64,000 nucleotides of DNA from contig CAYNQF010000002.1 in the NCBI GenBank assembly GCA_964399265.1, forward strand, positions 3,444 through 67,443. Direction: 5' to 3'. The notes under the pieces are model-generated. The model ran no database searches and had not been told where the DNA came from. It saw only the letters and a list, made by a program, of their open reading frames with translations. The translations under genes and the position numbers were made by a program. Position 1 is the first letter of the stretch. Each line of letters begins with the position of its first letter. Shown here piece after piece: positions 3,703 through 25,843 of this stretch. Source of the DNA: an uncultured bacterium (lineage in GTDB: Bacteria; Joyebacterota; Joyebacteria; Joyebacterales; Joyebacteraceae).

Positions 3703-5172
3703 TTGAGCGGAGCGGGCCGAGAGTTGCTCGCCAGAGCCGACCTTGCCGCCAGGTGCCGCAGCTGTGGCACCTGTCGGTCCGTATGCCCCGTGTTCGCCGA
3801 GGTGGGGCTCGAGGGCTCGGTGGCGCGCGGCAAGGTCGCGCTCATTCGTTCCGTCTTGGAGGGCGACCTCGAGCTGTCTGAAGTCTTCGAGGATCGCATC
3901 CTGCTGTGCCTCAACTGCAAGTCGTGCGTCGAGGGCTGTCCCAACAGCGTCAAGGTCGACGACCTCATCCTCGCCGCGCGCGCCGACCTCGTCGGGTCGG
4001 GGCGCCTTCCGTTCATTCGCAGGCTCGTCTTCCGGTATCTGCTCAAGCGCGGGCGGCTGCTCCCGCCCTTCGGCAGGCTGGCCTCGTTCGGCCAGCGGTG
4101 GTTCCTGCGCGGGCTGCCCCAGGACAGCGCCCTGCGCCTGCTTCTCCCGCTCGCCGGAGTGGATGAGAACCGCGTCTTCCCGGAGTTTGCGCCCAGGAGC
4201 TTCATGTCGATGGTCTCGGTGGAGACGGAGGCTGTCGGCTCCGCACCGTCCTCGTCCGAGGGGGGCGCCCGCGGGACGTACGACGCGGGCGTCGCCGGGC
4301 TCGAGCGGGGCGGTCCGGCCGACACGGGCTCGGCCGGAGTGCGAGATGAGAACCCGGAGATCGCGAAGCGCCGGGAGATCGCGCGCGCGGCTAAGCGTGT
4401 GGCCTATTTTGTCGGGTGTGCCACCAACCTGCTCTACCCGGAGACGGGTCGCGCGACCGTCGATGCGCTCGCGCGTAGCGGCGTCGACGTCGTGGTGCCG
4501 CGCGGGCAGACCTGCTGCGGCACGCCCGTGTTCAACTCCGGCGACTTCGAGACGGCACGCGCCATGGCGCGACGGAACATTAGGCTGTTGCGCGCGACCG
4601 GCGCCGACGCGGTGGTGACGGGCTGCGGCTCGTGCGGGTTGACGCTCAAGCGCGAGTACGAGCAGATGCTGGGTCTAGACGGGGGAGTGGGGTTGCCGGT
4701 GTTCGACTTCGCCGAGTTCCTGGCGTACCGGGGATTCGATGCTGGTTCGGCCGAGCTCGCGGCAGACGCCTCAGAGGCCGGTGGTCGTTCGAGGGATCAC
4801 GCTGACGCCGGCGCCGCGCCGCCGAAGGTGCGAGTGACCTACCACGACCCGTGCCACCTGTCGCGAGGGCAGGGGATACGCGACGAGCCGCGCCAGCTGC
4901 TGCGCGCGCTGCCGTGGGTCGAGTTCGTAGAGATGCGCGACGCCGACCGCTGCTGCGGCAGCGGGGGGACGTTCTCGCTGTCGCACTACGACATCTCGAA
5001 GCAGATTGGGGCGCGCAAGGTCGCCGCGATCCGCGACGCCGAGGTGGATGTCGTCGTCACCGAGTGCCCGTCGTGCGTCATGCAGCTGCGGGACATGCTG
5101 ACGCAGGCGGGGCTGGACGTGGCCGTCGTGAGCGTGGCCGACCTGGTAGCGCAGAGGGGACGGCGAGGCTAG
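3703..5172 (+). CDS. Fe-S oxidoreductase with two 4Fe-4S motifs and two CCG (Cys-rich) domains, GlcF/heterodisulfide-reductase-like
   Basis: 'CRSCGTCRSVCP' and 'CLNCKSCVEGCP' ferredoxin motifs; 'TCCGTP' and 'CCGSGGTF' CCG domains; TTG start preceded by GAGGAGG. Confidence 0.7.
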   Translation: MSGAGRELLARADLAARCRSCGTCRSVCPVFAEVGLEGSVARGKVALIRSVLEGDLELSEVFEDRILLCLNCKSCVEGCPNSVKVDDLILAARADLVGSGRLPFIRRLVFRYLLKRGRLLPPFGRLASFGQRWFLRGLPQDSALRLLLPLAGVDENRVFPEFAPRSFMSMVSVETEAVGSAPSSSEGGARGTYDAGVAGLERGGPADTGSAGVRDENPEIAKRREIARAAKRVAYFVGCATNLLYPETGRATVDALARSGVDVVVPRGQTCCGTPVFNSGDFETARAMARRNIRLLRATGADAVVTGCGSCGLTLKREYEQMLGLDGGVGLPVFDFAEFLAYRGFDAGSAELAADASEAGGRSRDHADAGAAPPKVRVTYHDPCHLSRGQGIRDEPRQLLRALPWVEFVEMRDADRCCGSGGTFSLSHYDISKQIGARKVAAIRDAEVDVVVTECPSCVMQLRDMLTQAGLDVAVVSVADLVAQRGRRG

Positions 5173-5314: not shown

Positions 5315-5389
5315 TCCTCGGTAGCTCAATGGTAGAGCAACCGGCTGTTAACCGGTTGGTTGGTGGTTCGAGTCCGCCCCGAGGAGCCA
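5315..5389 (+). tRNA. tRNA-Asn (anticodon GTT), CCA encoded
   Basis: Hand-folded cloverleaf: acceptor tcctcgg/ccgagga, D-stem gctc/gagc, anticodon stem accgg/ccggt with loop cuGUUaa, T-stem ggtgg/ccgcc with loop TTCGAGT, discriminator G then CCA. Confidence 0.9.
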
Positions 5390-5396
5390 AAGACGC

Positions 5397-5426
5397 GGGG
5401 CCTGGCGCACTGCCAGGCCCCGTTTT
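5397..5426. terminator. Intrinsic terminator hairpin (ggggcctggc-gcact-gccaggcccc + GTTTT); bidirectional for tRNA-Asn and the convergent amidohydrolase gene
   Basis: 10-bp GC stem followed by T-run, directly after the tRNA 3' end and 11 nt from the stop of the minus-strand gene. Confidence 0.6.
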
Positions 5427-5436
5427 CAGTTCCGCA

Positions 5437-7650
5437 TCAGCGCAAGAGCACGACCTTCTTCGTCAGCGCTGTGCTCCCGGTGTTCAGACGTATCAGATAG
5501 ACGCCCGAAGCGAGGATGTGGCCCGATCCGTCGAGGCCCCGCCACTCCAGAGTGTGATTGCCGGCCTCGAAGTGGCCGTCGGCCAGAACGCTCACACGTC
5601 GGCCACCGACGGTGAAGAGCTCTACGGAGACCTGTTCGTCGCGTGGCAGTGTGAACGTCACCGTCGCGCGCGGATTGCAGGGATTAGGATGAATCCCCAT
5701 GGTCACCGGCGTCTGGTCGTACTCGGGTACGTCCGCAACGTCGCATTCAGACACCTCGAGACCTCTGAAGCAGCACAACTCCGGCTGCGCCACGTCGTAG
5801 GCCGCCTCCAGCGGGGCCATGACATCGCTGAAGAGCTGATCGGAGTATTCGATCGCGTGAGACTCCACGGCCAGCGCAAGACGCTTGGTCTCCCCGGAGA
5901 TGGTGACGTCCTCCGTCAGGGTGAGGTAGTCGAACTGGTCCATGAGCGCCGGGTCGCCGTATCCGGGTCTGCCGCTCACCACAGTGAGCTTCACATCTAC
6001 GGCGTCAGCCGCGAGCAGCGCGTCGTAAGGCGCGGCGGGATCTCCGGGGATCACCATGAGGTCGGCGCGGAGCCCCGGCACGATCGCTCCGCGGATGTCG
6101 CTCATGCCCAAAGCCTCAGCAGCGTTCACGGTGACCATCTCCGCCAACATCTGGGGAGTCAAGAGACCCGACCACTGGGAGTTGGACCACCCGTGAGCGA
6201 TCTTCATCTCGTCGAGCACGCTGTTGGACCCGCTCTCAGTCCAGTCGGGGCCCAGCGCGACGTTGACACCCGCGGCAAGCGCCCCGGGCACGTCGGCCGT
6301 CGCTCCGTACAGCGTGAGGTTGGATTCGGGTGACCAGATGAGGTGGGCTCCCACTGCCGCCATCGCCGACCACTCGGGCGCTTGGAGCGCCGTGCCGTGG
6401 ATGATGGTGGTGCGGCCATCCAGCATGCCCATGCTCTGCCACTGGGCGAACTCGTTGCGCGCGGTCACATCGATACCCTCAGCCAGGTGAATCACGAAGC
6501 GGCGCCAGTTCTCGGCGGCGCGGGCTTGCCATTGGCTGGCGCTGTCTGACAGGGGAAACGTGCTGTGGTAGATGCGCGGCGGCCAGCGATGAGCGTTGTT
6601 GATGCCGATTCCCTCTCGCGCGTAGGGATCGTCATCGTGGCTGTAGCAGTTGGGGCCCTGGATGGTCGTCGTGCCGTTGCACATGGCCCGGACCTCGGCG
6701 AGCTTGTCGATGTTGAAACGCTGGACCGCGGGCGTCGTGTAGTTGAGGATGTCCTGGTACTGCGCGTTGAAGTCATCGTAGATCGGGTCGCTCTGCCACT
6801 CGGCGCGATTGTCGAAGAGCTGGCCGAAGGGGATGAAGCCGAGCACGTTGTACTGCTGGTGGTTGTGGGCGTCGATGAGGCCGGGGAAGATGAGGCCGTC
6901 GGTTGCGATCGCGGGAATGCCCGGTGGCGGTGAGTCATAGATCCCGACGATGAGGTCGCCCTGCACCTCTACCCAATGATCGATCAGCACGTCGCGAGTG
7001 GCGTTCATGGTGACCACATCGCCGCCAAGGGCGTAGTGCGCAATGAGGTCACCGGCGATATCGGCCGTGAAGCGGGGTTCCAGCTCGAAGACTCCGAAGC
7101 GGTAGAAAAGGGTGCCTGTGATCGACGTGAGTTCATCGCCAACCTTCGGGAAGTAGAGGTAGTCGTTGATATCGTCACAGACCAGGACGCCGTCCACGGT
7201 CCACTCACCGTAGGTGAGCAGGGCGGTCACCGTTACGTCCTCCACGGTGATAAGCACAGACTCGTACTGCTCCTGGTTTGCGGACGCCGTTGAGATGACC
7301 ACCGGAGTCACCGGGCTGTCGTGCGAGAGGATGCTGAAGGCAGTGAGACCCGTGATCTCGGTCATCCCGTTGTATTCCTGCACTCGACCCGTCAGTTCCA
7401 CCTCGTCACCGACGGCCGGCCCGGCCGTGTAGGTGTAGACGAAGACCGCGTGCCAAGGTCCCGCCTCCTCGCACATCACGAAGCCGTCGTAGTGCACCGC
7501 GGTCACGACGCCGCCGGTGCTCACCACCTGCCCGGCGTACGGCGAGTTACCGGAGGGGTCGGTGGTGTACTGGATGTCGTAGATGGTCACTCCTGAAGCC
7601 GCGGCCGAGGTGCAGAAGACAACAGCCAAGACTACGAAGAAGCGTCGCAT
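5437..7650 (-). CDS. Secreted amidohydrolase-family metal-dependent hydrolase with N-terminal OB-like beta-barrel domain and C-terminal FlgD-like sorting domain
   Basis: Start at internal Met 'MRRFFVVLAVVFCTSAAASG' (signal peptide, GGAGGG RBS); 'GLIDAHNHQQY' amidohydrolase HxH motif; C-terminal 'HPNPCNPRATVTF...LFTVGGRRVSVL...GVYLIRL...KKVVLLR'. Confidence 0.7.
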   Translation of the reverse strand: MRRFFVVLAVVFCTSAAASGVTIYDIQYTTDPSGNSPYAGQVVSTGGVVTAVHYDGFVMCEEAGPWHAVFVYTYTAGPAVGDEVELTGRVQEYNGMTEITGLTAFSILSHDSPVTPVVISTASANQEQYESVLITVEDVTVTALLTYGEWTVDGVLVCDDINDYLYFPKVGDELTSITGTLFYRFGVFELEPRFTADIAGDLIAHYALGGDVVTMNATRDVLIDHWVEVQGDLIVGIYDSPPPGIPAIATDGLIFPGLIDAHNHQQYNVLGFIPFGQLFDNRAEWQSDPIYDDFNAQYQDILNYTTPAVQRFNIDKLAEVRAMCNGTTTIQGPNCYSHDDDPYAREGIGINNAHRWPPRIYHSTFPLSDSASQWQARAAENWRRFVIHLAEGIDVTARNEFAQWQSMGMLDGRTTIIHGTALQAPEWSAMAAVGAHLIWSPESNLTLYGATADVPGALAAGVNVALGPDWTESGSNSVLDEMKIAHGWSNSQWSGLLTPQMLAEMVTVNAAEALGMSDIRGAIVPGLRADLMVIPGDPAAPYDALLAADAVDVKLTVVSGRPGYGDPALMDQFDYLTLTEDVTISGETKRLALAVESHAIEYSDQLFSDVMAPLEAAYDVAQPELCCFRGLEVSECDVADVPEYDQTPVTMGIHPNPCNPRATVTFTLPRDEQVSVELFTVGGRRVSVLADGHFEAGNHTLEWRGLDGSGHILASGVYLIRLNTGSTALTKKVVLLR

Positions 7651-7698
7651 ACGTGTCCCTCCGGTTGCATTCGCCACATCGAGTATGTGAGCAATGCT

Positions 7699-7730
7699 AT
7701 TATACCACACTGTGGCTAGAATCGGCTGCC
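7699..7730 (-). promoter_or_regulatory. Candidate sigma70 promoter for the amidohydrolase gene (extended -10 TGgTATAAT on minus strand)
   Basis: Reverse complement of 7699-7707 reads tggTATAAT, about 45 nt upstream of ATG 7650; -35 is weak. Confidence 0.35.
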
Positions 7731-7944: not shown

Positions 7945-8028
7945 GGAGGGTCGAACACTCGGGTTCGAAACACGTCCACCACGCGGAGCCAGCATACGAA
8001 GGCCCGGTCTGTCGAGACCGGGCCTTCT
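7945..8028 (+). repeat. Intergenic repeat copy A (GGTTCGAAaCaCGTCCACCACGcGGAGCCaGCATAcGAA + hairpin gaaggcccggtc-tgtcgag-gaccgggccttc)
   Basis: Shares a ~45-nt core plus GC hairpin with the copies at 10288, 13187 and 16597. Confidence 0.5.
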
Positions 8029-8055: not shown

Positions 8056-8084
8056 TTGACTTCATTGTGCCTTCTGACTATACT
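8056..8084 (+). promoter_or_regulatory. Near-consensus sigma70 promoter TTGACT-17-TATACT
   Basis: TTGACT 8056-8061, 17-nt spacer, TATACT 8079-8084; conserved in the duplicated module (23318-23346). Confidence 0.6.
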
Positions 8085-8091
8085 GTATGTC

Positions 8092-8170
8092 AGCAGAGGC
8101 GACCACGTTGGTATGGTGACATATCCGGAAGCTCTTAGGAGGGACCTGGCGCGCGAGCCGGTCCCTTTTT
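8092..8170 (+). ncRNA. Candidate ~79-nt small RNA or cspA leader-attenuator transcript (promoter to intrinsic terminator)
   Basis: Bounded by promoter 8056-8084 and terminator 8141-8170; whole unit conserved (about 85-90 % nt) in the second copy at 23354-23432. Confidence 0.4.
8141..8170 (+). terminator. Rho-independent terminator gggacc(t)ggc-gcgcga-gccggtccc + TTTTT
   Basis: 9-bp stem with one bulge followed by five T; loop differs between copies while the stem is conserved. Confidence 0.6.
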
Positions 8171-8356
8171 ACGTTTCAGAGGCGCCATGAGGCGCCCAAG
8201 GATATGCTCCATACCGGCGGTCGGTGATGGCGCCACCTGCAGGGGCGGACAGGCCCCGTCACGAAGAATGTCGGAACGTCGGGCACCCCGGCGCCGGCAA
8301 CACGGTCGCAGGCGAGGAAACGCTTTTCGCCGCGAGAGCAAGAGAGGTAGCAGATA

Positions 8357-8572
8357 GTGAGTACCAACGGAACCGTGAAGTGGTTCAACGACGGCAAGGG
8401 CTTCGGCTTCATCTCCTTGGAGGACGGGTCGAAGGACGTATTCGTTCACCATTCGGCGATTCAGGGCGGAGACGAGTTCAAGACGCTGAACGAGGGCGAT
8501 CGCGTGCAGTTCGATGTCGTGCAGGGCGAGAAGGGCCCGGCGGCCGAGAACGTCACGAAGATCGTGGAGTAG
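8357..8572 (+). CDS. cspA: Cold-shock protein, CspA family (71 aa, GTG start)
   Basis: '[13 protein letters not shown]' RNP1 and 'VFVHHSAI' RNP2-like motifs; AAGAGAGG RBS. Confidence 0.9.
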
Positions 8573-8608: not shown

Positions 8609-8652
8609 CGGGGCCGCCTTCTGACTCAATGAGGGCGGCCCCGCTGCTTCTC
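8609..8652 (+). terminator. Hairpin terminator after cspA (cggggccgcc-N15-ggcggccccg + ctgcttctc)
   Basis: 10-bp GC stem then pyrimidine/U-rich tract; counterpart at 23870-23910 in copy 2. Confidence 0.5.
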
Positions 8653-8689: not shown

Positions 8690-10201
8690 TTGAACGCGCT
8701 TCTAGTCTATCCCAAGAACCCCGAGACCTTCTGGAGCCTCACGCATGCCCTCAGGCTCATAAACCGGAAGGCCGCGTCTCCTCCTCTCGGCCTTCTGACA
8801 GTGGCGGCGATGCTTCCCTCTGACTGGGACCTTCGTCTCGTCGATCTGAACGTTCGCCCCATGACCCGTGAGGACCTTGCGTGGGCCGACTGTGCCCTTC
8901 TGAGCGGGATGATCGTCCAGAGGGAGTCGGCGCTCGAGATCGCCGCTCGCTGTAAGGCCGCGGGCCTGATGGTGGTTGCAGGCGGACCGCTCTTCGCGTC
9001 GGAGAACGAGAGAGCGAAGTTCGGGGACGTCGATCACTTCGTGCTTAACGAGGCGGAGCTCACACTGCCTCCGTTTCTTGAGGATCTTGAACGCGGCCGG
9101 GCGCGCCGCGTGTACCAGACCAGCGAGTTCGCTGACCTGACCACCACGCCGGTCCCGCGATGGGACTTGGTGGACCCGCACGAGTACGCCTCCCGAGGAG
9201 TCCAGTTCTCGCGCGGCTGTCCCAACAACTGCGAGTTCTGTGAAGTAACACAGCTATTCGGTCATCGCTGGCGGACGAAGGCGGTCTCTCAGGTCGTCGC
9301 TGAACTCAACGCCCTGCACGGGCTCGGCTGGCGCGGTGTCGTTCCTTTCGTGGACGACAACTTCAACGCGAAGGGCGAGTACGTCCGCCGCGAGCTTCTC
9401 CCGGCCCTGATCGAATGGAGAGCGGGCAAGCGAGGAATGGGCTTCAGCGCTCAGGTCACCATGCAGCTCGCAGACGACGCCGAGCTCATGGAACTCATGG
9501 TACGGGCCGGGTTCGACACCGTCTTCATCGGGATCGAGACGATGGACGACGCGAATCTGGCGGAGTGTCACAAGAGGCACAATCGCCACAGGGACCTCCT
9601 GGCCGACGTGAAGCGCATCCAGAGGGCCGGACTCCAGGTGCAGGCGGGGTTCATCGTGGGGTTCGACAACGACACGCCGTCGGTCTTCGCGCGGATGACC
9701 GAGTTCATACAGAAGAGCGGCATCGCCACCGCGATGGTCGGTATGCTGCAGGCGCCGGTCGGCACGGCCCTGTACAAGCGTCTCGATCGCGAGGGTCGGA
9801 TTCGAGTCGATCTGTCCGGCGACAACTCCGACGGCACGACGAACATCGTTCCGAGGATGGGTCTCGAGTCGCTGCAGACGGGATACGGCGGCCTACTGCG
9901 CGACCTCTATGCGCCAAGCAATTACTACCGCCGCGTGCGAACCTTCCTCAGGGAGTACCGCCCGCAGAGGACGAACCTCCGGTTCTCAGCGCCGCACGCC
10001 CTGGCCGTCTTCCGCTCTTTCTACCACTTGAGCCTCGCAGGCCGGGAGCGGTGGGAGTATCCGGGCCTGCTGTTCTGGACGCTCTTCAGACGTCCCAGGT
10101 CCTTGCCAGTAGCCGTAGTGCTCGCCATCTACGGGTACCACTACCGCAAGTGCTACGAGACATTCTTCAGCGCGGTCATCCCTGATTCTGCTCGCGCTTG
10201 A
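8690..10201 (+). CDS. B12-binding domain radical SAM protein with C-terminal DUF4070-like region (class B rSAM methyltransferase-like), TTG start
   Basis: N-terminal B12-binding-like 'PPLGLLTVAAMLP'; CX3CX2C 'CPNNCEFC'; 503 aa; about 85 % identical paralogue at 23947-25458. Confidence 0.85.
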   Translation: MNALLVYPKNPETFWSLTHALRLINRKAASPPLGLLTVAAMLPSDWDLRLVDLNVRPMTREDLAWADCALLSGMIVQRESALEIAARCKAAGLMVVAGGPLFASENERAKFGDVDHFVLNEAELTLPPFLEDLERGRARRVYQTSEFADLTTTPVPRWDLVDPHEYASRGVQFSRGCPNNCEFCEVTQLFGHRWRTKAVSQVVAELNALHGLGWRGVVPFVDDNFNAKGEYVRRELLPALIEWRAGKRGMGFSAQVTMQLADDAELMELMVRAGFDTVFIGIETMDDANLAECHKRHNRHRDLLADVKRIQRAGLQVQAGFIVGFDNDTPSVFARMTEFIQKSGIATAMVGMLQAPVGTALYKRLDREGRIRVDLSGDNSDGTTNIVPRMGLESLQTGYGGLLRDLYAPSNYYRRVRTFLREYRPQRTNLRFSAPHALAVFRSFYHLSLAGRERWEYPGLLFWTLFRRPRSLPVAVVLAIYGYHYRKCYETFFSAVIPDSARA

Positions 10202-10287: not shown

Positions 10288-10348
10288 CGAATACTGCTGC
10301 ATTCGGGGAGCCGGCATACGAAGGCCGGTCCGAGAGGACCGGGCCTTC
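10288..10348 (+). repeat. Intergenic repeat copy B (GGGGAGCCGGCATACGAAGGCCGGTCC-gaga-GGACCGGGCCTTC), downstream of the rSAM gene
   Basis: Same GGAGCC-GCATACGAAGG-hairpin core as copy A; likely doubles as a terminator. Confidence 0.45.
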
Positions 10349-10845
10349 CACTTGCGCGCGAGATAGAGGAAATCGGGAGCGTCGGAGGGCGCTCCCCTTA
10401 GTGCATTCCAGGGGGTGGGCCGCCCTGTGGAGTCGTCCTGCGGTTGCAGCGGGGGTCCACAGTGATGCTCGACAGCGAACGGTCAGGTGTGGGCGACAAA
10501 CCGCAGCTGCCCATGTGATGATAATGGCCATTGAGGAACCTCCGCCTTACGAAGTAGATGCACGATCTGCTCAAGCGTGTAGCGGCTCCGTCCCATCAAG
10601 AACCCCCTCTCTGACCAGCCCGAGTCTACCTCCCGACTTGGACCAGTTCTAGGGGGTCAGGTCAGGCTCGGTGCGTTCTAGAAGCTTGACGTGTTCACGA
10701 GCGTGTGGGAGGCAGAGGCGCTGGCCACAAGACGGCGACGCAAGTACAATGAGATGAGAACTCACGAGCCTTGGGGCACCTCCCGGCATCACATGCTTCT
10801 ACCCGACCGGGGCTTGCGCCGCTCTTAACCGCCGCTGATGTGTGA

Positions 10846-13104
<2,259 letters not shown>

Positions 13105-13186: not shown

Positions 13187-13265
13187 GGGTTCCCGGTCAC
13201 AAGTTCGAATACCGTCCACCGCGGGGAGCCATAGAAGCGGGGCCTGGCGATGACGTCAGGTCCCG
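13187..13265 (+). repeat. Intergenic repeat copy C (GGTTCccGGTCACaaGTTCGAATACCGTCCACCGCGGGGAGCCATAGAAGCGGGGCCTG...CAGGTCCC), downstream of katG
   Basis: Shares GTTCGAAT-CCGTCCACC-GGAGCC-CATA-hairpin order with copies A and D. Confidence 0.45.
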
Positions 13266-13337
13266 TGTTCAGTTGGACGTCCGTCACGTCCCTGGGGGCG
13301 GCCAACGCTCGGATATCGTCCATTGGCGGGCGCTTTG

Positions 13338-14070: not shown

Positions 14071-16593
14071 ATGCGCGCGATCTCTGCTGTCCTGTCTCTC
14101 CTGTTCATCCTGGCCGCCTGCACCGCCGAGGCCCAGATCCCCTCGACGATAAGCTACCAGGGCGTGTTGAACGACGACACCGGGACACCCGTCCCGGATG
14201 GTGATTACGACATGACATTCAGGATCTACAACGTGGCCACAGGCGGAAGCAACCTGTGGCATGAGGCCCAGACCGTGCCGGTGGCGGGTGGCATATTCAA
14301 CGCGCAGCTCGGCGCCGCGACGCCGCTGGATGACTTGCTGGAGTTCGACGAGCCCTACTACCTGAGCGTGGAGATTGGCCACAACGGGGAGATGACTCCC
14401 CGGAACCCGCTGACCACGACGCCCTACGCGTTCCGCGCGGCCGTTGCTGAGTCGCTGGACGGCGTCATTCCCCCCGACACCGACTGGGTTGAGTCGGGCG
14501 GTAACGTCTACCGGCTGACCGGCAACGTTGGTATCGGCACGAGCGATCCGTCGAAGCAGCTTGACGTCGTCGGCGATGCCGCGATCCTGGGCAACCTGAA
14601 GGTGATAGGCGACGTGGACATGCAGTCGGTGGAGATGAACCCTGGCGCTTCCGACGGATACGTTCTCACGTCCGACGCGAGCGGCAACGGCACGTGGCAG
14701 CCGGTTGCCGGTGTGGCGGTGCCGGGGAGCGACACCCAGGTGCTCTACAACGACGGCGGCAGCCTGGGCGCTGCCGGTCTGTACTACGACGATGTCAACG
14801 GGCGGCTCGGCGTAGGAGTGGCCGCGCCGATTCGGACGCTTGACATCGGAACGGGGGACCTCATCGCCGGCGAGATCTCCGCATTGAGCAGCGTGGGGAC
14901 GGGCACGCTCGAGGACGACGGCTCAGGAGAGCTCGACATCAACTCCTGGCAGATCAACCTGAACGGTCGCGCGGTCATCGCCGGGCAGCCAAGCTACGAT
15001 CCGGATCTCGACGTTACGGGCGTGACTGAGACCGACGGGTTCAGGCTCACGACTTCGCCTTCGGCGGGATTTGTGCTGACCTCCGACGCGAGCGGCAACG
15101 GCACGTGGCAGGCGCCGTCGGAGGTCACGGTGCCGGGCAGCGACGCCCAGATGCTCTACAACGACGGGGGAGACTTCGGTGCTGCGGGCGTCTACTACGA
15201 TGACGTCAACGGCAGGCTAGGTGTCGGTGTGGCGTCGCCCACAAGGACTCTCGATGTGGGGCAGAGCGGGGACATTCATTGCGGCGGCCTGCTCGCGGAT
15301 GGAGGCGTGTTCACGACCTCCCTGGCGCCAGCGGCGACAGCTGACCTCGACGTCACCCACGGGAGAACGGAGTTCTCGGGACGGGTCGGCATTAAGACCC
15401 TTCCTGGAACGGGCGTTGATCTCGACGTCATGGGCCTGACGCGGACCCAGACCTTCAGACTGACGACCTCGCCGACAGCGGGCCACGTTCTCACCTCGGA
15501 CGCCACCGGCAACGGCACGTGGCAGGCGCCGCCTGAGGTGACGGTGCCCGGCAGCGACACGCAGATGCTCTACAACGACGGGGGTGACTTCGGAGCCGCC
15601 GGCGTCTACTACGATGACGCCAACGGCAGGCTGGGCATCGGTGTAGCGTCCCCCGCCTACTCTCTCGACACCGGCGCAGGCGGCTGGATGCGCTCCGGCG
15701 ATGTGCGCGCGGAAACTGCAGTTCATACGAACACGCTTATGTCGACGGGGAGCAACCCCGACCTGACCGTAATGCACAACAGGACGCTGGTGACGGGCCA
15801 GCTCGGGGTGGGCGGTGCAACGCCGGGGGTCGGCACCTCCCTCGAGGTCGACGGGCTCACGCAGACCGACGAGTTCAGACTGACGACCTCGCCGTCCGAC
15901 GGCTACGTCCTGACCTCGGACGCAAGCGGCAACGGCACATGGCAGGCAGTTCCCGTGGAGCTGACGACGGACTCGGTCACTGCGGTGCACATCGCGGCGA
16001 ACGCCGTCGGCACCGACGAGCTCGCGACGGACTCAGTCGGCTCGAGCAATATACAGCACAACGCCGTCACCGCGGACGAGATCCTGGACGGCGCGGTGGG
16101 CGCTGCTGAGATCGGGACCGACGCCGTCGGCACCGATGAGATCATGTGGAACGGCGTCGACTCGGATGAGATCGCGACGGACGCAGTGGGCGAGGACGAG
16201 ATCGCCTACGGCGCCGTTGGCCGTGACGAGCTGGCCGAGACGTTCAAGTCCGCGTACGTGAACGTGAACACCTACAACTCAGGCGAGTACATCTGGCACC
16301 AGTCGTACTGGACGAAGGGAACGCCGCTCATCCAGACAACAGGCACGTCACGCCAGATCCAGATCATCGACACTGCCAGCTCCGGCACGGTCAACGTGCT
16401 GGTCACGGTCAACGGCTCGGTGCTGGTCAGTACGACGGCGCCGTACACGCTGAACATGACATCGACGGGCTCCGCGTACGACATCTACGTCTACCCGGCC
16501 AACTCCCTGGTCAAGTGGTTCGTGCACTTCGAGGGGACCATCCTGTCGAACTATCGCGTGGTCGGAATTGTCCAGGCAGGAGGAGGCCACTAG
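14071..16593 (+). CDS. Lipoprotein with four ~110-aa tail-fibre-like repeats ('LTSDASGNGTWQ...PGSDxQxLYNDGGxxGAAGxYYDDxNGRLGxGVAxP')
   Basis: Signal/lipobox 'LFILAAC'; N-terminal 'ISYQGVLND' module; internal repeats obvious by eye; no FlgD tail; GGAGGG RBS. Confidence 0.6.
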   Translation: MRAISAVLSLLFILAACTAEAQIPSTISYQGVLNDDTGTPVPDGDYDMTFRIYNVATGGSNLWHEAQTVPVAGGIFNAQLGAATPLDDLLEFDEPYYLSVEIGHNGEMTPRNPLTTTPYAFRAAVAESLDGVIPPDTDWVESGGNVYRLTGNVGIGTSDPSKQLDVVGDAAILGNLKVIGDVDMQSVEMNPGASDGYVLTSDASGNGTWQPVAGVAVPGSDTQVLYNDGGSLGAAGLYYDDVNGRLGVGVAAPIRTLDIGTGDLIAGEISALSSVGTGTLEDDGSGELDINSWQINLNGRAVIAGQPSYDPDLDVTGVTETDGFRLTTSPSAGFVLTSDASGNGTWQAPSEVTVPGSDAQMLYNDGGDFGAAGVYYDDVNGRLGVGVASPTRTLDVGQSGDIHCGGLLADGGVFTTSLAPAATADLDVTHGRTEFSGRVGIKTLPGTGVDLDVMGLTRTQTFRLTTSPTAGHVLTSDATGNGTWQAPPEVTVPGSDTQMLYNDGGDFGAAGVYYDDANGRLGIGVASPAYSLDTGAGGWMRSGDVRAETAVHTNTLMSTGSNPDLTVMHNRTLVTGQLGVGGATPGVGTSLEVDGLTQTDEFRLTTSPSDGYVLTSDASGNGTWQAVPVELTTDSVTAVHIAANAVGTDELATDSVGSSNIQHNAVTADEILDGAVGAAEIGTDAVGTDEIMWNGVDSDEIATDAVGEDEIAYGAVGRDELAETFKSAYVNVNTYNSGEYIWHQSYWTKGTPLIQTTGTSRQIQIIDTASSGTVNVLVTVNGSVLVSTTAPYTLNMTSTGSAYDIYVYPANSLVKWFVHFEGTILSNYRVVGIVQAGGGH

Positions 16594-16596
16594 CGT

Positions 16597-16671
16597 TCCG
16601 TCCTGTGGTTCGAATCCCGTCCACCACGAGGAGCCGGCATAGGAGGCCCGGTCCATGAGGACCGGGCCTCC
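16597..16671 (+). repeat. Intergenic repeat copy D (GTGGTTCGAATCCCGTCCACCACGAGGAGCCGGCATAGGAGGCCCGGTCC-atga-GGACCGGGCCTCC)
   Basis: Begins 4 nt after the TAG stop of the upstream gene; 13-bp perfect GC stem. Confidence 0.5.
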
Positions 16672-16773
16672 TCGCGGCTGCGCTCGATTGTGGCCGCAGG
16701 GCACAACGCGTATGCTGCGAGAACCCCCTCAGGGCGCTCCATCCGCAGGCTGTCCACCGCGGGACTCGCGGCG

Positions 16774-18882: not shown

Positions 18883-19090
18883 TGCGGTCATGACCAGAGG
18901 TGAGGCGAGGTTCCCGATCCGAAAGGACCGGGCCTTCCGCGTGTTTGGCGCTCTAGTCGAACCTGGCGATTGAGAGACTTGGTGCAATCCCCGCTTGTCT
19001 CCGTGACCGCGGAGCCGCAGGCCGTCTCCAAGCAACGAAAACCCCCGCCGCTCGGAGAACGGCGGGGGTCTCATCTTCTACAGGATGCGT

Positions 19091-23317: not shown

Positions 23318-23346
23318 TTGACTTAAATGGGTGGGTGGACTATCTT
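23318..23346 (+). promoter_or_regulatory. sigma70 promoter TTGACT-17-TATCTT (copy 2 of the module)
   Basis: Paralogous to 8056-8084. Confidence 0.55.
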
Positions 23347-23353
23347 GAAGCCA

Positions 23354-23432
23354 AGCAGAGGCGACCACGTCGGTATGGTGACATATCCGAAGACTCTCAA
23401 GAGGGACCTGGCGCAGAGGCCGGTCCCTTTTT
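23354..23432 (+). ncRNA. Candidate small RNA / csp leader-attenuator, copy 2
   Basis: Conserved with 8092-8170; ends in gggacc(t)ggc-gcagag-gccggtccc + TTTTT (23403-23432). Confidence 0.4.
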
Positions 23433-23617
23433 GCGTTTCAGGGGCGCCATGAGGCGCCCCAGGATATGCCCCAGGCCGGCGGTCGGTGACGGCGTCGCCT
23501 GCAGGGGAGGACAGGCCCCTTAACTGAGGATGTCGGAAAGCCTGGTTGAGAGGCGCCGACGACACGATCGCGGGCGAGGCACGATTCTCGCCGCGAGAAC
23601 AAGAGAGGCAGCATACA

Positions 23618-23946: not shown

Positions 23947-25458
23947 TTGAACGCGCTCCTGATCTACCCGAAGAACCCCGAGACCTTCTGGAGCCTTACG
24001 CACGCCCTCCGGCTCATCAACCGGAAGGCCGCTTCACCTCCACTCGGGCTCCTGACGGTCGCCGCCCTTCTACCTTCCGACTGGAATCTGCGCCTCGTCG
24101 ACCTGAACGTTGGCGTCTTGACCAACGACGACCTGGTCTGGGCCGACTGCGCTCTAGTGAGCGGCATGATCGTGCAGAAGAACTCGGCACTGGAGGTCGT
24201 CACTCGCTGCAAGTCGGCGGGCCTGACCGTGATCGCCGGCGGGCCGCTCTTTGCGTCGGAGGAAGAGAGGGCCGCGTTCACCGGTGTGGATCACTTCGTG
24301 CTGAACGAGGCAGAGCTGACCCTCCCGCCGTTCCTCCAGGACCTCGAGCGGGGCACGACACGCCGCACGTACCGCACAGACCAGTACGCCGACATGACCA
24401 CCACGCCCGTACCTCGCTGGGATCTCCTGGATCCGCGCGAGTACGCCTCACGTGGCGTCCAGTTCTCACGTGGCTGTCCGAACAACTGCGAGTTCTGCGA
24501 GGTCACGCAGCTGTTTGGGCATCGCTGGAGGACGAAGGCGGTCTCTCAGGTCATTGCCGAACTGGACGTACTCGACGGACTCGGGTGGCACGGTGTCGTC
24601 CCATTCGTCGACGACAACTTCAACGCGAAGGGGCGGTACCTGCGCGGCGAGCTTCTTCCCGCGCTGATCGAGTGGAGGCGAGGCAAGCGCGGCATGAACT
24701 TCAGCGCTCAGGTCACGATGGAACTCGCCGACGACCCCGAGCTGATGCAGATGATGGTGAGCGCGGGTTTCGACACTGTCTTCATCGGGATCGAGACGAT
24801 GGACGAGGCGAACCTCGCCGAGTGTCACAAGCGGCAGAATCGCAACCGCGACCTTCTGGCCGACATCAAGCGCATCCAGAGGGCGGGCCTCCAGGTCCAG
24901 GCGGGCTTCATCGTCGGTTTCGACAACGACACGCCCTCGGTCTTCGAGCGGATGGGCGAGTTCATACAGAAGAGCGGTATCGTTACCGCGATGGTCGGAA
25001 TGCTCCAGGCTCCGATCGGCACGGCTCTCTACAAGAGGCTCGACCGCGAGGGGCGGATTCGCACCGGTCTGTCGGGTGACAACTCCGACGGCACGACGAA
25101 CATCGTTCCGAGCATGGGCTTGGGTCCGCTCCAGGAAGGGCACAAGAGGCTCCTGAGAGAACTCTACTCGCCGGCGAACTACTACCGTCGAGTGAAGACC
25201 TTCCTCCGCGAGTACCGCCCGCCCAGGGCGAACACTCACATCTCCCGCTCACACGTCCTGGCGGCCGTCAGGTCGTTCTACTACCTGAGCCTCGCGGGTC
25301 GTGAGCACTGGCAGTTCCCCGGCCTTCTCATCTGGACCCTGTTCCGGCGCCCCAGGGCTCTTCCGGTCGCCGTCGTTCTCGCCATCTACGGCTATCACTA
25401 CCGCAAGAGCTACGAGCCTCTCTTCAGTTCGGTCACCTCCGTCACCGCTCGTGCCTGA
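23947..25458 (+). CDS. B12-binding radical SAM / DUF4070 protein, paralogue 2 (503 aa, TTG start)
   Basis: 'CPNNCEFC'; same length and about 85 % identical to the 8690 copy. Confidence 0.85.
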   Translation: MNALLIYPKNPETFWSLTHALRLINRKAASPPLGLLTVAALLPSDWNLRLVDLNVGVLTNDDLVWADCALVSGMIVQKNSALEVVTRCKSAGLTVIAGGPLFASEEERAAFTGVDHFVLNEAELTLPPFLQDLERGTTRRTYRTDQYADMTTTPVPRWDLLDPREYASRGVQFSRGCPNNCEFCEVTQLFGHRWRTKAVSQVIAELDVLDGLGWHGVVPFVDDNFNAKGRYLRGELLPALIEWRRGKRGMNFSAQVTMELADDPELMQMMVSAGFDTVFIGIETMDEANLAECHKRQNRNRDLLADIKRIQRAGLQVQAGFIVGFDNDTPSVFERMGEFIQKSGIVTAMVGMLQAPIGTALYKRLDREGRIRTGLSGDNSDGTTNIVPSMGLGPLQEGHKRLLRELYSPANYYRRVKTFLREYRPPRANTHISRSHVLAAVRSFYYLSLAGREHWQFPGLLIWTLFRRPRALPVAVVLAIYGYHYRKSYEPLFSSVTSVTARA

Positions 25459-25843
25459 GGTTGCCGCAACGGGACCGTCGTCAAGGCTACGACGAACCTC
25501 TCTCTTGACGGCAGCCGGCTGACCGGCGATGGCCGGGCGACGTATAGCCGGCTTCACGGGGTCCGGCGTTGCGGGCGGGAATGCGGTGCGCTGGTGCGAG
25601 CTGTATCTCACGGCGTGCCCTCCCTTTCGGGGGGCACGCTTCTTTCTGTCTCTCCCGGCTTCCGGTCAGGCAGTGTGCGGTCCCCAAGCCATTCCATGGT
25701 AGACTTGGCGTGCTCGATCGTTTCAGAGATGAGAGGGGAAGCTGGCCACCGCAGGGTAGCTCGTGTGGTATGGTTCGACGCTATTCTGGAAAGTCGTTGC
25801 GAAGCGGACGGACGCTCGCGGAACAACCCGAAGGGAGAGTGCA

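Follow-up and report, generated by a model that had tools for sequence, protein, structure and literature searches.

A conserved structured leader with a terminator-like hairpin upstream of cold-shock protein genes in Candidatus Eisenbacteria-like contigs

Cold-shock protein (csp) genes are a textbook example of control by a long mRNA leader. Here we describe such a leader in a 64,000-nucleotide (nt) stretch of DNA from an uncultured bacterium (contig CAYNQF010000002.1 of assembly GCA_964399265.1, positions 3,444 to 67,443 of the forward strand; referred to as the window, always at its full length), in which two csp genes (copy A and copy B respectively) are each preceded by a promoter and a structured leader. 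We regard it as highly probable that the roughly 265 nt lying 5' of csp form a conserved, cis-acting structured leader. Within this leader, a GC-rich hairpin is directly followed by a U run, and its sequence inclines us, on balance, to read it as a conditional intrinsic terminator, i.e., an attenuator.

Promoter, hairpin, and fold of the csp leader

The near-consensus promoter that an earlier note on this DNA had pointed out upstream of copy A is indeed present, and the predicted transcription start lies near A8092, about 7 nt past the -10 box (Table 1). Given this start, the U run of the hairpin ends at about +79, and the GTG start codon of csp at position 8357 is 186 nt further on. A promoter scan found two promoter-like sites between 7400 and 9200, with 0.3 expected from shuffled sequences, and no further site on the + strand from 8085 to 8357, i.e., before the start of csp. 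In the family of leaders described below, the TTGAC and TAnnnT hexamers are retained in 49 of the 49 leaders listed, and only this upstream promoter is conserved; between copies A and B, similarity sets in exactly at the -35 box. Because no second promoter is seen, csp expression must pass the hairpin, in agreement with the earlier proposal that it needs read-through from the only recognizable promoter. The resulting arrangement, a csp gene without its own promoter downstream of the terminator-like hairpin, is one that an attenuator would have. The gene name cspA used in the note is supported by family membership alone, and we refer to the gene as csp.

The hairpin of copy A reads GGGACC(u)GGC-gcgcga-GCCGGTCCC, with TTTTT abutting its 3' end. 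Its core stem consists of nine GC-rich pairs, as described previously, although it also contains one bulged U; the loop has 6 nt, and four A-U/G-U pairs formed between the 5' flank and the U run lengthen the stem to 13 pairs. Folding yields -16.7 kcal/mol for the core alone, and -21.2 kcal/mol when the lower-stem extension is included. A strong terminator-type hairpin with TTTTT, reported earlier at about 79 nt after the start, is therefore present, and it has the features of an intrinsic terminator, namely a GC-rich stem within the range of 5-14 pairs, a short loop, and a U run that abuts the stem. The window has 64.8% G+C and 17.7% T, and TTTTT occurs only twice on its + strand, as the U runs of copies A and B. 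The stems of the two copies are identical and their loops are not (gcgcga in copy A and gcagag in copy B), just as the note had observed; the loops differ at four positions. A very similar hairpin with a U run is found at 5395-5423, 6 nt past the tRNA-Asn gene, where a terminator is expected. It is composed of GGGGCCUGGCGCACUGCCAGGCCCC plus GUUUUCAG and matches covariance model R1 at 15.1 bits (E = 0.035), and the same model also matches the copy at 13225-13268 at 10.5 bits.

Related leaders were recruited by two routes. A metagenome scan with a 21-base leader pattern gave 20 matches on 19 contigs, and all 20 have csp 251-268 nt downstream (211 nt in a shorter variant, L094). The second route, which was used to avoid pattern bias, consisted of contigs encoding Csp proteins at 79-93% identity, and the leader was present in all of those with enough upstream sequence. 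With a covariance model of the first 90 nt, 50 copies (44 distinct) were found, every one of them upstream of csp, with up to three copies per contig and sometimes two in tandem; the leader precedes every related csp recovered, wherever the upstream sequence suffices. All contigs that carry it are Candidatus Eisenbacteria-like. The Csp proteins P0048, P0098, and P0108 are labeled Candidatus Eisenbacteria by NCBI, and P0098 (locus L137) is among the fetched contigs. When the Csp protein was used to scan a single genome from each species, the leader was found in the two closest loci only (L001 and L002) and was absent from Gemmatimonadota and other phyla. In what follows, covariance modeling refers to the 50 copies (44 distinct), folding energies to 37 non-redundant leaders, and RNAalifold predictions to 34 leaders or, in an early run, to the first 24.

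The hairpin and U run are present in all 37 non-redundant leaders, with mean energies of -15 kcal/mol for the core and -21 kcal/mol for the extended stem. The 8-nt tail that follows the core contains 5.4 U on average, compared to about 1.4 expected from base composition, and at least five U in 32 of the 37 leaders. In a model-based alignment of the 44 distinct leaders, which leans towards the covariance model, 94% of the hairpin cells are paired and 17 cells have changed on both sides, and none of 500 shuffles matches either the paired fraction or the covariation score; in a MAFFT alignment, 92% of the hairpin cells are paired. The positions of the U run stay U and pair with A or G, without drift to G-C pairs. 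The most diverged class (L146 and L148) keeps both hairpin and U run, even though its 5' domain is unrelated. Selection at the RNA level, which had been suspected from the two copies in the window, is thus borne out by the 44 distinct leaders.

Conservation is highest in the first 37 nt, where the mean pairwise identity is 92% (88% among leaders from the protein route); the csp coding sequence reaches 84%, and the middle and distal parts of the leader 38-69%. The loop of the hairpin in this 5' domain varies among homologs (GUGA, GCAA, GCGA, and UUCG, all of which are stable tetraloops), and an A-U pair of its stem is replaced by G-C in L146 and L148. Two registers of this hairpin fit the sequences: the tetraloop pattern and L146 favor GGUAUG/CAUAUC, while L093 and L098a favor the other.

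According to RNAalifold (34 leaders), nt 2-13 pair with a segment about 140 nt downstream, beyond the terminator-like hairpin. This closing helix encloses a domain with a three-way junction layout, which holds the first hairpin, the terminator-like hairpin, and the GGCGCC-AUGA-GGCGCC hairpin that the earlier note had placed between the terminator and the ribosome-binding site, where it is in fact located. The duplex energy of the closing helix is -15 to -18 kcal/mol, a value equaled by 0-15 of 300 shuffles. In L130, three adjacent bases have changed in a compensating manner on both strands (GCAGUUC with GAACUGC), and the strand has an energy of -18.0 kcal/mol with its own partner vs. -10.7 and -10.5 kcal/mol crosswise; in L084 and L085a, the sequence is GGUCGCC, which is fully complementary to the invariant GGCGACC. 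The GGCGCC hairpin is missing from a natural deletion variant (L094 and L110-L119), which retains the 5' domain, the terminator-like hairpin, and the 3' strand of the closing helix. Further downstream, paired RNA does precede the ribosome-binding site, as the note had stated, but what was drawn there as one long imperfect helix resolves into several separate hairpins.

Over the whole leader (34 leaders), 89.9% of the cells are paired and 26 pairs have changed on both sides. On each of five measures, the observed value is out of reach of all 500 shuffles, and in slid controls only 38-49% of the cells are paired. Compared to shuffled sequences, the leaders of the window fold with z = -5.0 (copy A) and z = -3.7 (copy B). 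The hairpin and the whole-leader structure thus covary among the two copies and their homologs, a pattern that the note had suggested looking for. Since the RNA downstream of the hairpin is structurally selected and the sole conserved promoter lies upstream, read-through transcripts must exist and matter; likewise, because the 5' end has its partner past the hairpin, we take the functional molecule to be the full-length leader.

Table 1. Predicted elements of the two csp loci in the window (coordinates count from the first nucleotide of the window; helix numbers are those of the whole-leader test).
Feature	Position	Strand	Evidence
Promoter, copy A: -35 TTGACT 8056-8061, 17-nt spacer, -10 TATACT 8079-8084	8056-8084	+	10 of 12 consensus positions
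Near-invariant 5' domain: single strand AGCAGAGGCGACCACGUU 8092-8109, hairpin GGUAUG-GUGA-CAUAUC 8110-8125	8092-8128	+	Identity, loop variants
Terminator-like hairpin: core 8141-8165, lower stem 8137-8140 with 8166-8169, U run 8166-8170	8137-8170	+	Folding, conservation, covariation
Hairpin GGCGCC-AUGA-GGCGCC	8181-8196	+	Helix 7, 3 pairs changed on both sides
Closing helix, 3' strand GGCGCC-ACC-UGC, pairs with 8093-8104	8229-8240	+	RNAalifold, 34 leaders
Distal hairpin GGGGC/GCCCC	8242-8257	+	Helix 8, 2 pairs changed on both sides
Distal hairpin GUCGG.../...CCGGC	8270-8298	+	Helices 9-10, 6 pairs changed on both sides
Distal hairpin	8306-8335	+	Helices 11-12, 8 pairs changed on both sides
Ribosome-binding site AAGAGAGG 8340-8347 and GTG start codon 8357-8359	8340-8359	+	Site unpaired in predicted full-length fold
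csp gene, copy A, 71 amino acids, cold-shock domain	8357-8572	+	Pfam CSD, 1.9e-29
Promoter, copy B: TTGACT-17-TATCTT	23318-23346	+	Similarity to copy A
Leader, copy B: hairpin core 23403-23427, U run 23428-23432	23354-23617	+	Covariance model, 109.8 bits
csp gene, copy B, 70 amino acids	23618-23830	+	Homology to copy A

Attenuation and competing explanations

As an attenuator, the leader may work as follows. Transcription would begin about 7 nt after the sigma-70-type promoter, and between +50 and +79 the nascent RNA would form the GC-rich hairpin with the U run directly after it, where a fraction of the polymerases would stop by default and release an RNA of about 80 nt. The polymerases that pass the hairpin would finish the leader, whose near-invariant 5' end would then pair about 140 nt downstream and close a multi-branch domain with three hairpins; three more hairpins would form, and the ribosome-binding site would be left free. 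The amount of csp mRNA would be set by the frequency of read-through, which amounts to transcription attenuation. From the gene that is regulated and from precedent, we infer that read-through may rise in the cold or shift with the Csp level, possibly because the hairpin forms more slowly, because its 5' arm is transiently paired with the 5' strand, or because Csp binds to the nascent RNA.

A candidate antiterminator was suggested by RNAalifold on the first 24 leaders, in which the hairpin's 5' arm and loop are paired with nt 8-18 (GCG.CCA.GUY). This pairing is the lowest-energy fold of a nascent RNA of 62-66 nt and is 96.8% conserved, and in L130, L098a, and L085c its strands fit their own partner better than foreign ones. 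Several observations, however, leave it a weak candidate, which counts against attenuation. The terminator fold is about 15 kcal/mol more stable and would displace the antiterminator once the 3' arm is made. The pairing has never changed on both sides, because both strands are almost invariant. Its gain of 6-9 kcal/mol in the 37 leaders is no better than that of shuffled 5' segments, of which 4-92 in 100 equal or beat it (at least 10 in 36 of the 37 leaders). We consider this antiterminator no more than a possibility.

Other points weigh against attenuation as well. In nine leaders, a G-U or A-U pair of the U run has been replaced by C-G through a compensatory change, and therefore pairing, and not U-richness alone, is selected; one class of paralogs (L098b, L120, L137, and L138) has only 3-4 U in the tail. 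We infer termination at the U run from the sequence, and the hairpin, as one arm of a larger conserved fold, could have a purely structural role; structural selection past the hairpin fits a hairpin that never terminates equally well. In addition, E. coli Csp proteins are reported to melt terminators, and the known autoregulation of csp genes is negative. If Csp were to melt the terminator here, the result would be positive feedback, unlike this known autoregulation.

A similar layout, which counts in favor of termination, recurs in Gemmatimonadota. Three csp loci of this phylum (L003, ~1326-1551; L007, ~1787-2000; and L009, ~1758-2000) have, with unrelated stems, the same order of promoter, 60-80 nt, GC hairpin with U run, 125-150 nt, and csp, and since the upstream gene is divergent, the hairpin is not that gene's terminator. 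In L003, a closing helix is again predicted, and it encloses a GNRA-capped hairpin together with the terminator hairpin. We rejected homology of these leaders to those of Candidatus Eisenbacteria, as neither blastn, nhmmer, nor the covariance model finds any match and the layout alone is similar. A general excess of terminators in csp leaders was also considered in 78 csp loci of many phyla, and the counts (21 sense vs. 12 antisense) are unconvincing and are confounded by terminators of upstream genes. A far-reaching scenario would be a factor-independent thermo-attenuator that responds to temperature, Csp, or both, with read-through decided kinetically in the seconds between synthesis of the two hairpin arms, that controls the csp paralogs of Eisenbacteria, has an independently evolved equivalent in Gemmatimonadota, and releases an 80-nt RNA acting in trans as a multi-copy "warm" reporter. 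As a whole, this scenario appears doubtful to us.

The alternative that we take most seriously, although we find it clearly less probable than attenuation, is that the hairpin does not usefully terminate, and is instead a structural or protein-binding arm of a leader that acts after transcription. The U-rich 3' side could then be the site where Csp binds and melts the hairpin in negative autoregulation, possibly together with RNase III cleavage, similar to Staphylococcus aureus, where both the binding of CspA and its autoregulation require UUUUU in the right arm of a leader hairpin (PMC5815144). The covarying pairing of the U run (8166-8169) with the purine-rich 5' flank is consistent with such an arm, as is the position of the hairpin inside a closed multi-branch domain with a well-supported closing helix. 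Alternatively, the whole leader could be a thermosensor for mRNA stability or translation, as is known for csp leaders in E. coli (RF01766) and Listeria (PMC8079631). A 5' end that is helical from nt 2 would shield the mRNA from decay that depends on the 5' end. However, the full-length fold is predicted to leave the ribosome-binding site unpaired and shows no sign of a translational switch, and a pairing of this site with the U run (from RNAalifold on the first 24 leaders) was rejected as weak, G-U-rich, and without covariation or any two-sided change; the G found within the U run of L083-type leaders compensates for a C in the 5' flank of the hairpin and not for an altered ribosome-binding site. 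A non-terminating arm is also at odds with the terminator look of a GC hairpin that abuts 5-7 U in a genome of 65% G+C, and with the Gemmatimonadota leaders, which keep a hairpin and U run though the sequence has wholly changed.

The stand-alone small RNA that the earlier note had offered as an alternative, i.e., a terminated RNA of about 80 nt as the main product of a multi-copy locus, whose invariant 37-nt 5' part pairs with mRNAs, has been weakened and now seems improbable. Such an RNA would have its own strong promoter and a terminator with a U tail, the conservation of its 5' part (92%, vs. 84% for csp coding) exceeds what the long-range helix alone would need, and terminated riboswitch leaders that act in trans are known (e.g., SreA in Listeria; PMC8079631). 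However, it never occurs apart from csp in 50 copies, its 5' strand pairs with a conserved, covarying segment of this leader past the terminator, where the downstream helices covary as well, and the window contains no sites complementary to the 5' strand beyond chance. The terminated RNA could nevertheless have a role in trans alongside attenuation. We find it even harder to see the leader as a metabolite or ion riboswitch, with the 5' domain as a small aptamer and the hairpin as the expression platform, despite its near-invariant first 37 nt with the terminator directly after them and its three-way junction closed by a long-range helix: no Rfam family matches, csp is the only associated gene, which suggests that there is no ligand, the L146 class replaces the 5' domain and keeps the hairpin, and the closing helix extends beyond the terminator, unlike the build of terminator-type riboswitches. 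Attenuation by a leader peptide was given almost no credence and was rejected. Two frames are open in copy A, one from the ATG at 8113 (25 codons) and the other from the ATG at 8187 (56 codons, ending at the start of csp, with its stop one base into the GTG), but length, frame, and start codon are not conserved across the 37 leaders. The former frame is anywhere between 14 and 87 codons long, goes out of register after about 12 residues, lacks its ATG in 4 of the 37, and has no ribosome-binding site; the latter lacks its ATG in 14 of the 37 and has scattered ends, and this ATG belongs to a hairpin loop that elsewhere reads GAGA, GUGA, GCGA, or ACGA.

Other features of the window and related loci

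Copies A and B lie in a 2.1-kb duplication with 81% identity, which includes csp and a gene encoding a B12-binding radical SAM/DUF4070 protein 3' of csp (8690-10201 and 23947-25470 respectively). The radical SAM/DUF4070 gene also follows csp in L001, L082, L085, L087, L089, L091-L093, L097, L130-L136, and L149. The hairpin between csp and the radical SAM gene (8611-8645) lacks a U run, and co-transcription of the two is therefore possible. In L085, L098, L099, and L123-L126, two or three csp paralogs are present per contig, some of them in tandem about 600 nt apart; each has its own promoter and leader, and the strength of the U run ranges from 3 to 7 U by class.

A direct repeat of 36 nt (86% identity) is present at 5372-5407 and 13214-13249. 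The first copy consists of the 3' end of the tRNA-Asn gene (5315-5389) and the beginning of its terminator, and the second follows a stretch resembling the 3' half of a tRNA (~13196-13231), just past katG (10888-13104). The repeats flank 7.8 kb that contain an amidohydrolase gene, csp copy A with its leader, the radical SAM gene, and katG, and look like the attachment-site repeats of an integrated segment, for which no integrase was seen.

Another family of repeats, at 7982-8027, 10304-10354, 16627-16677, and 18914-18943, consists of GGAGCC(A/G)GCATA(C/G)GA followed by a GC hairpin (GGCCCGGTC...GACCGGGCC) without a U run, and its conserved prefix resembles the 3' end of a tRNA acceptor. One member (7982-8027) lies 30 nt upstream of the promoter of csp copy A, and another (10304-10354) about 100 nt past the radical SAM open reading frame that ends at 10201. 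No transfer-messenger RNA or tRNA was found in the 345 nt upstream of the copy A promoter. At 4667-4765, ARAGORN predicts an odd tRNA-like gene with a 4-base anticodon (cgac), where Rfam calls no tRNA. A tandem array with units of about 411-420 nt (14593-15947) and, after it, repeats with a 30-nt period (15991-16224) look like part of a large, repetitive gene for a surface protein. Several genes of the window encode secretion-system sorting domains at the C-terminal end, and the amidohydrolase of 757 amino acids (5437-7710) contains FlgD_ig and Por_Secre_tail.

Many Csp database entries are 89-104 amino acids long instead of about 70 (P0001, P0003, P0004, P0006, P0008, P0009, P0019, P0021, and others). 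Gene callers may have extended these csp frames upstream into the structured leader, and the covariance model could help annotators to correct over-long csp gene calls. In P0003 and P0011, the extension is at the C-terminal end.

Comparison with known csp leaders

A scan of the window and 15 related loci against Rfam 15, as the earlier note had suggested, gave nothing at the gathering score, and no family matches the leader. Membership in RF01766, the E. coli cspA thermoregulator, was rejected, as its 30.2 bits compare to a gathering score of 78 and the partial match is mostly to csp coding sequence. Our literature search yielded no paper on csp genes of Eisenbacteria. The E. coli cspA leader has a highly conserved "cold box" at its very 5' end, which resembles the leader described here in this respect. 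Both are also long, structured csp 5' untranslated regions conserved among paralogs (Giuliodori et al., 2010, cited in PMC3890552); the E. coli thermosensor, however, acts on translation and mRNA stability and has no known intrinsic terminator.

Rho loading sites are usually C-rich and G-poor. The leader has more G than C throughout (C/G 0.81, with a C excess of only 3.8% in the best 78-nt window) and is tightly folded, which makes a Rho site unlikely. Rho stops transcription early in the E. coli cspA, cspB, and cspG leaders at 37°C; refolding of the leader in the cold lifts this termination, and CspA brings it back (Delaleau et al., 2024, summarized in the review PMC12360218). The likeness lies in a long csp leader with early termination by default and an output set by read-through, all of which would apply here by prediction. 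Unlike the E. coli switches, which need Rho and an accessible loading site, the leader in the window has a hairpin and a U run, which would serve the same purpose without a factor; there is no homology in sequence or structure, and the response to cold or Csp is a conjecture here.

The leader hairpin with a U-rich 3' arm (8166-8169 paired with 8137-8140) is similar to that of S. aureus cspA, in which CspA binds to UUUUU in the 3' arm and, by way of RNase III, regulates itself negatively (PMC5815144). There is no homology between the two, however, and the S. aureus hairpin is an RNase III substrate and not a terminator, whereas here the U run abuts a GC-rich stem in terminator geometry. The Listeria monocytogenes cspA thermoswitch (Ignatov et al., 2020, via PMC8079631) is likewise a csp leader, in which alternative hairpins answer temperature. 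The switch is 101 nt long and frees the ribosome-binding site, while in the window this site is predicted to be free already.

The order of promoter, short leader, intrinsic terminator, and gene is shared with attenuators and terminator-type riboswitches, as is a nascent fold that can engage the terminator's 5' arm ahead of synthesis of the 3' arm. Unlike these, the csp leader has no statistically supported antiterminator, leader peptide, or recognizable aptamer, and the partner of its 5' strand lies past the terminator.

To our knowledge, all known csp-leader mechanisms, namely a translational thermosensor, Rho-dependent premature termination, and processing by RNase III, come from a few cultured Proteobacteria and Firmicutes, and we know of no cultured member of the phylum Candidatus Eisenbacteria. 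We also know of temperature-responsive intrinsic terminators only as engineered devices and of none found in nature. The kind of element, a regulatory csp leader with premature termination, is known; its factor-independent form, fold, and lineage are new. If the hairpin is only a Csp-binding arm, the leader would still represent a new, though unsurprising, family of csp leaders. If it is an attenuator, it would be a factor-independent version of premature termination in csp leaders and the first regulatory RNA candidate for Candidatus Eisenbacteria, in the form of a compact, testable system of about 90 nt.

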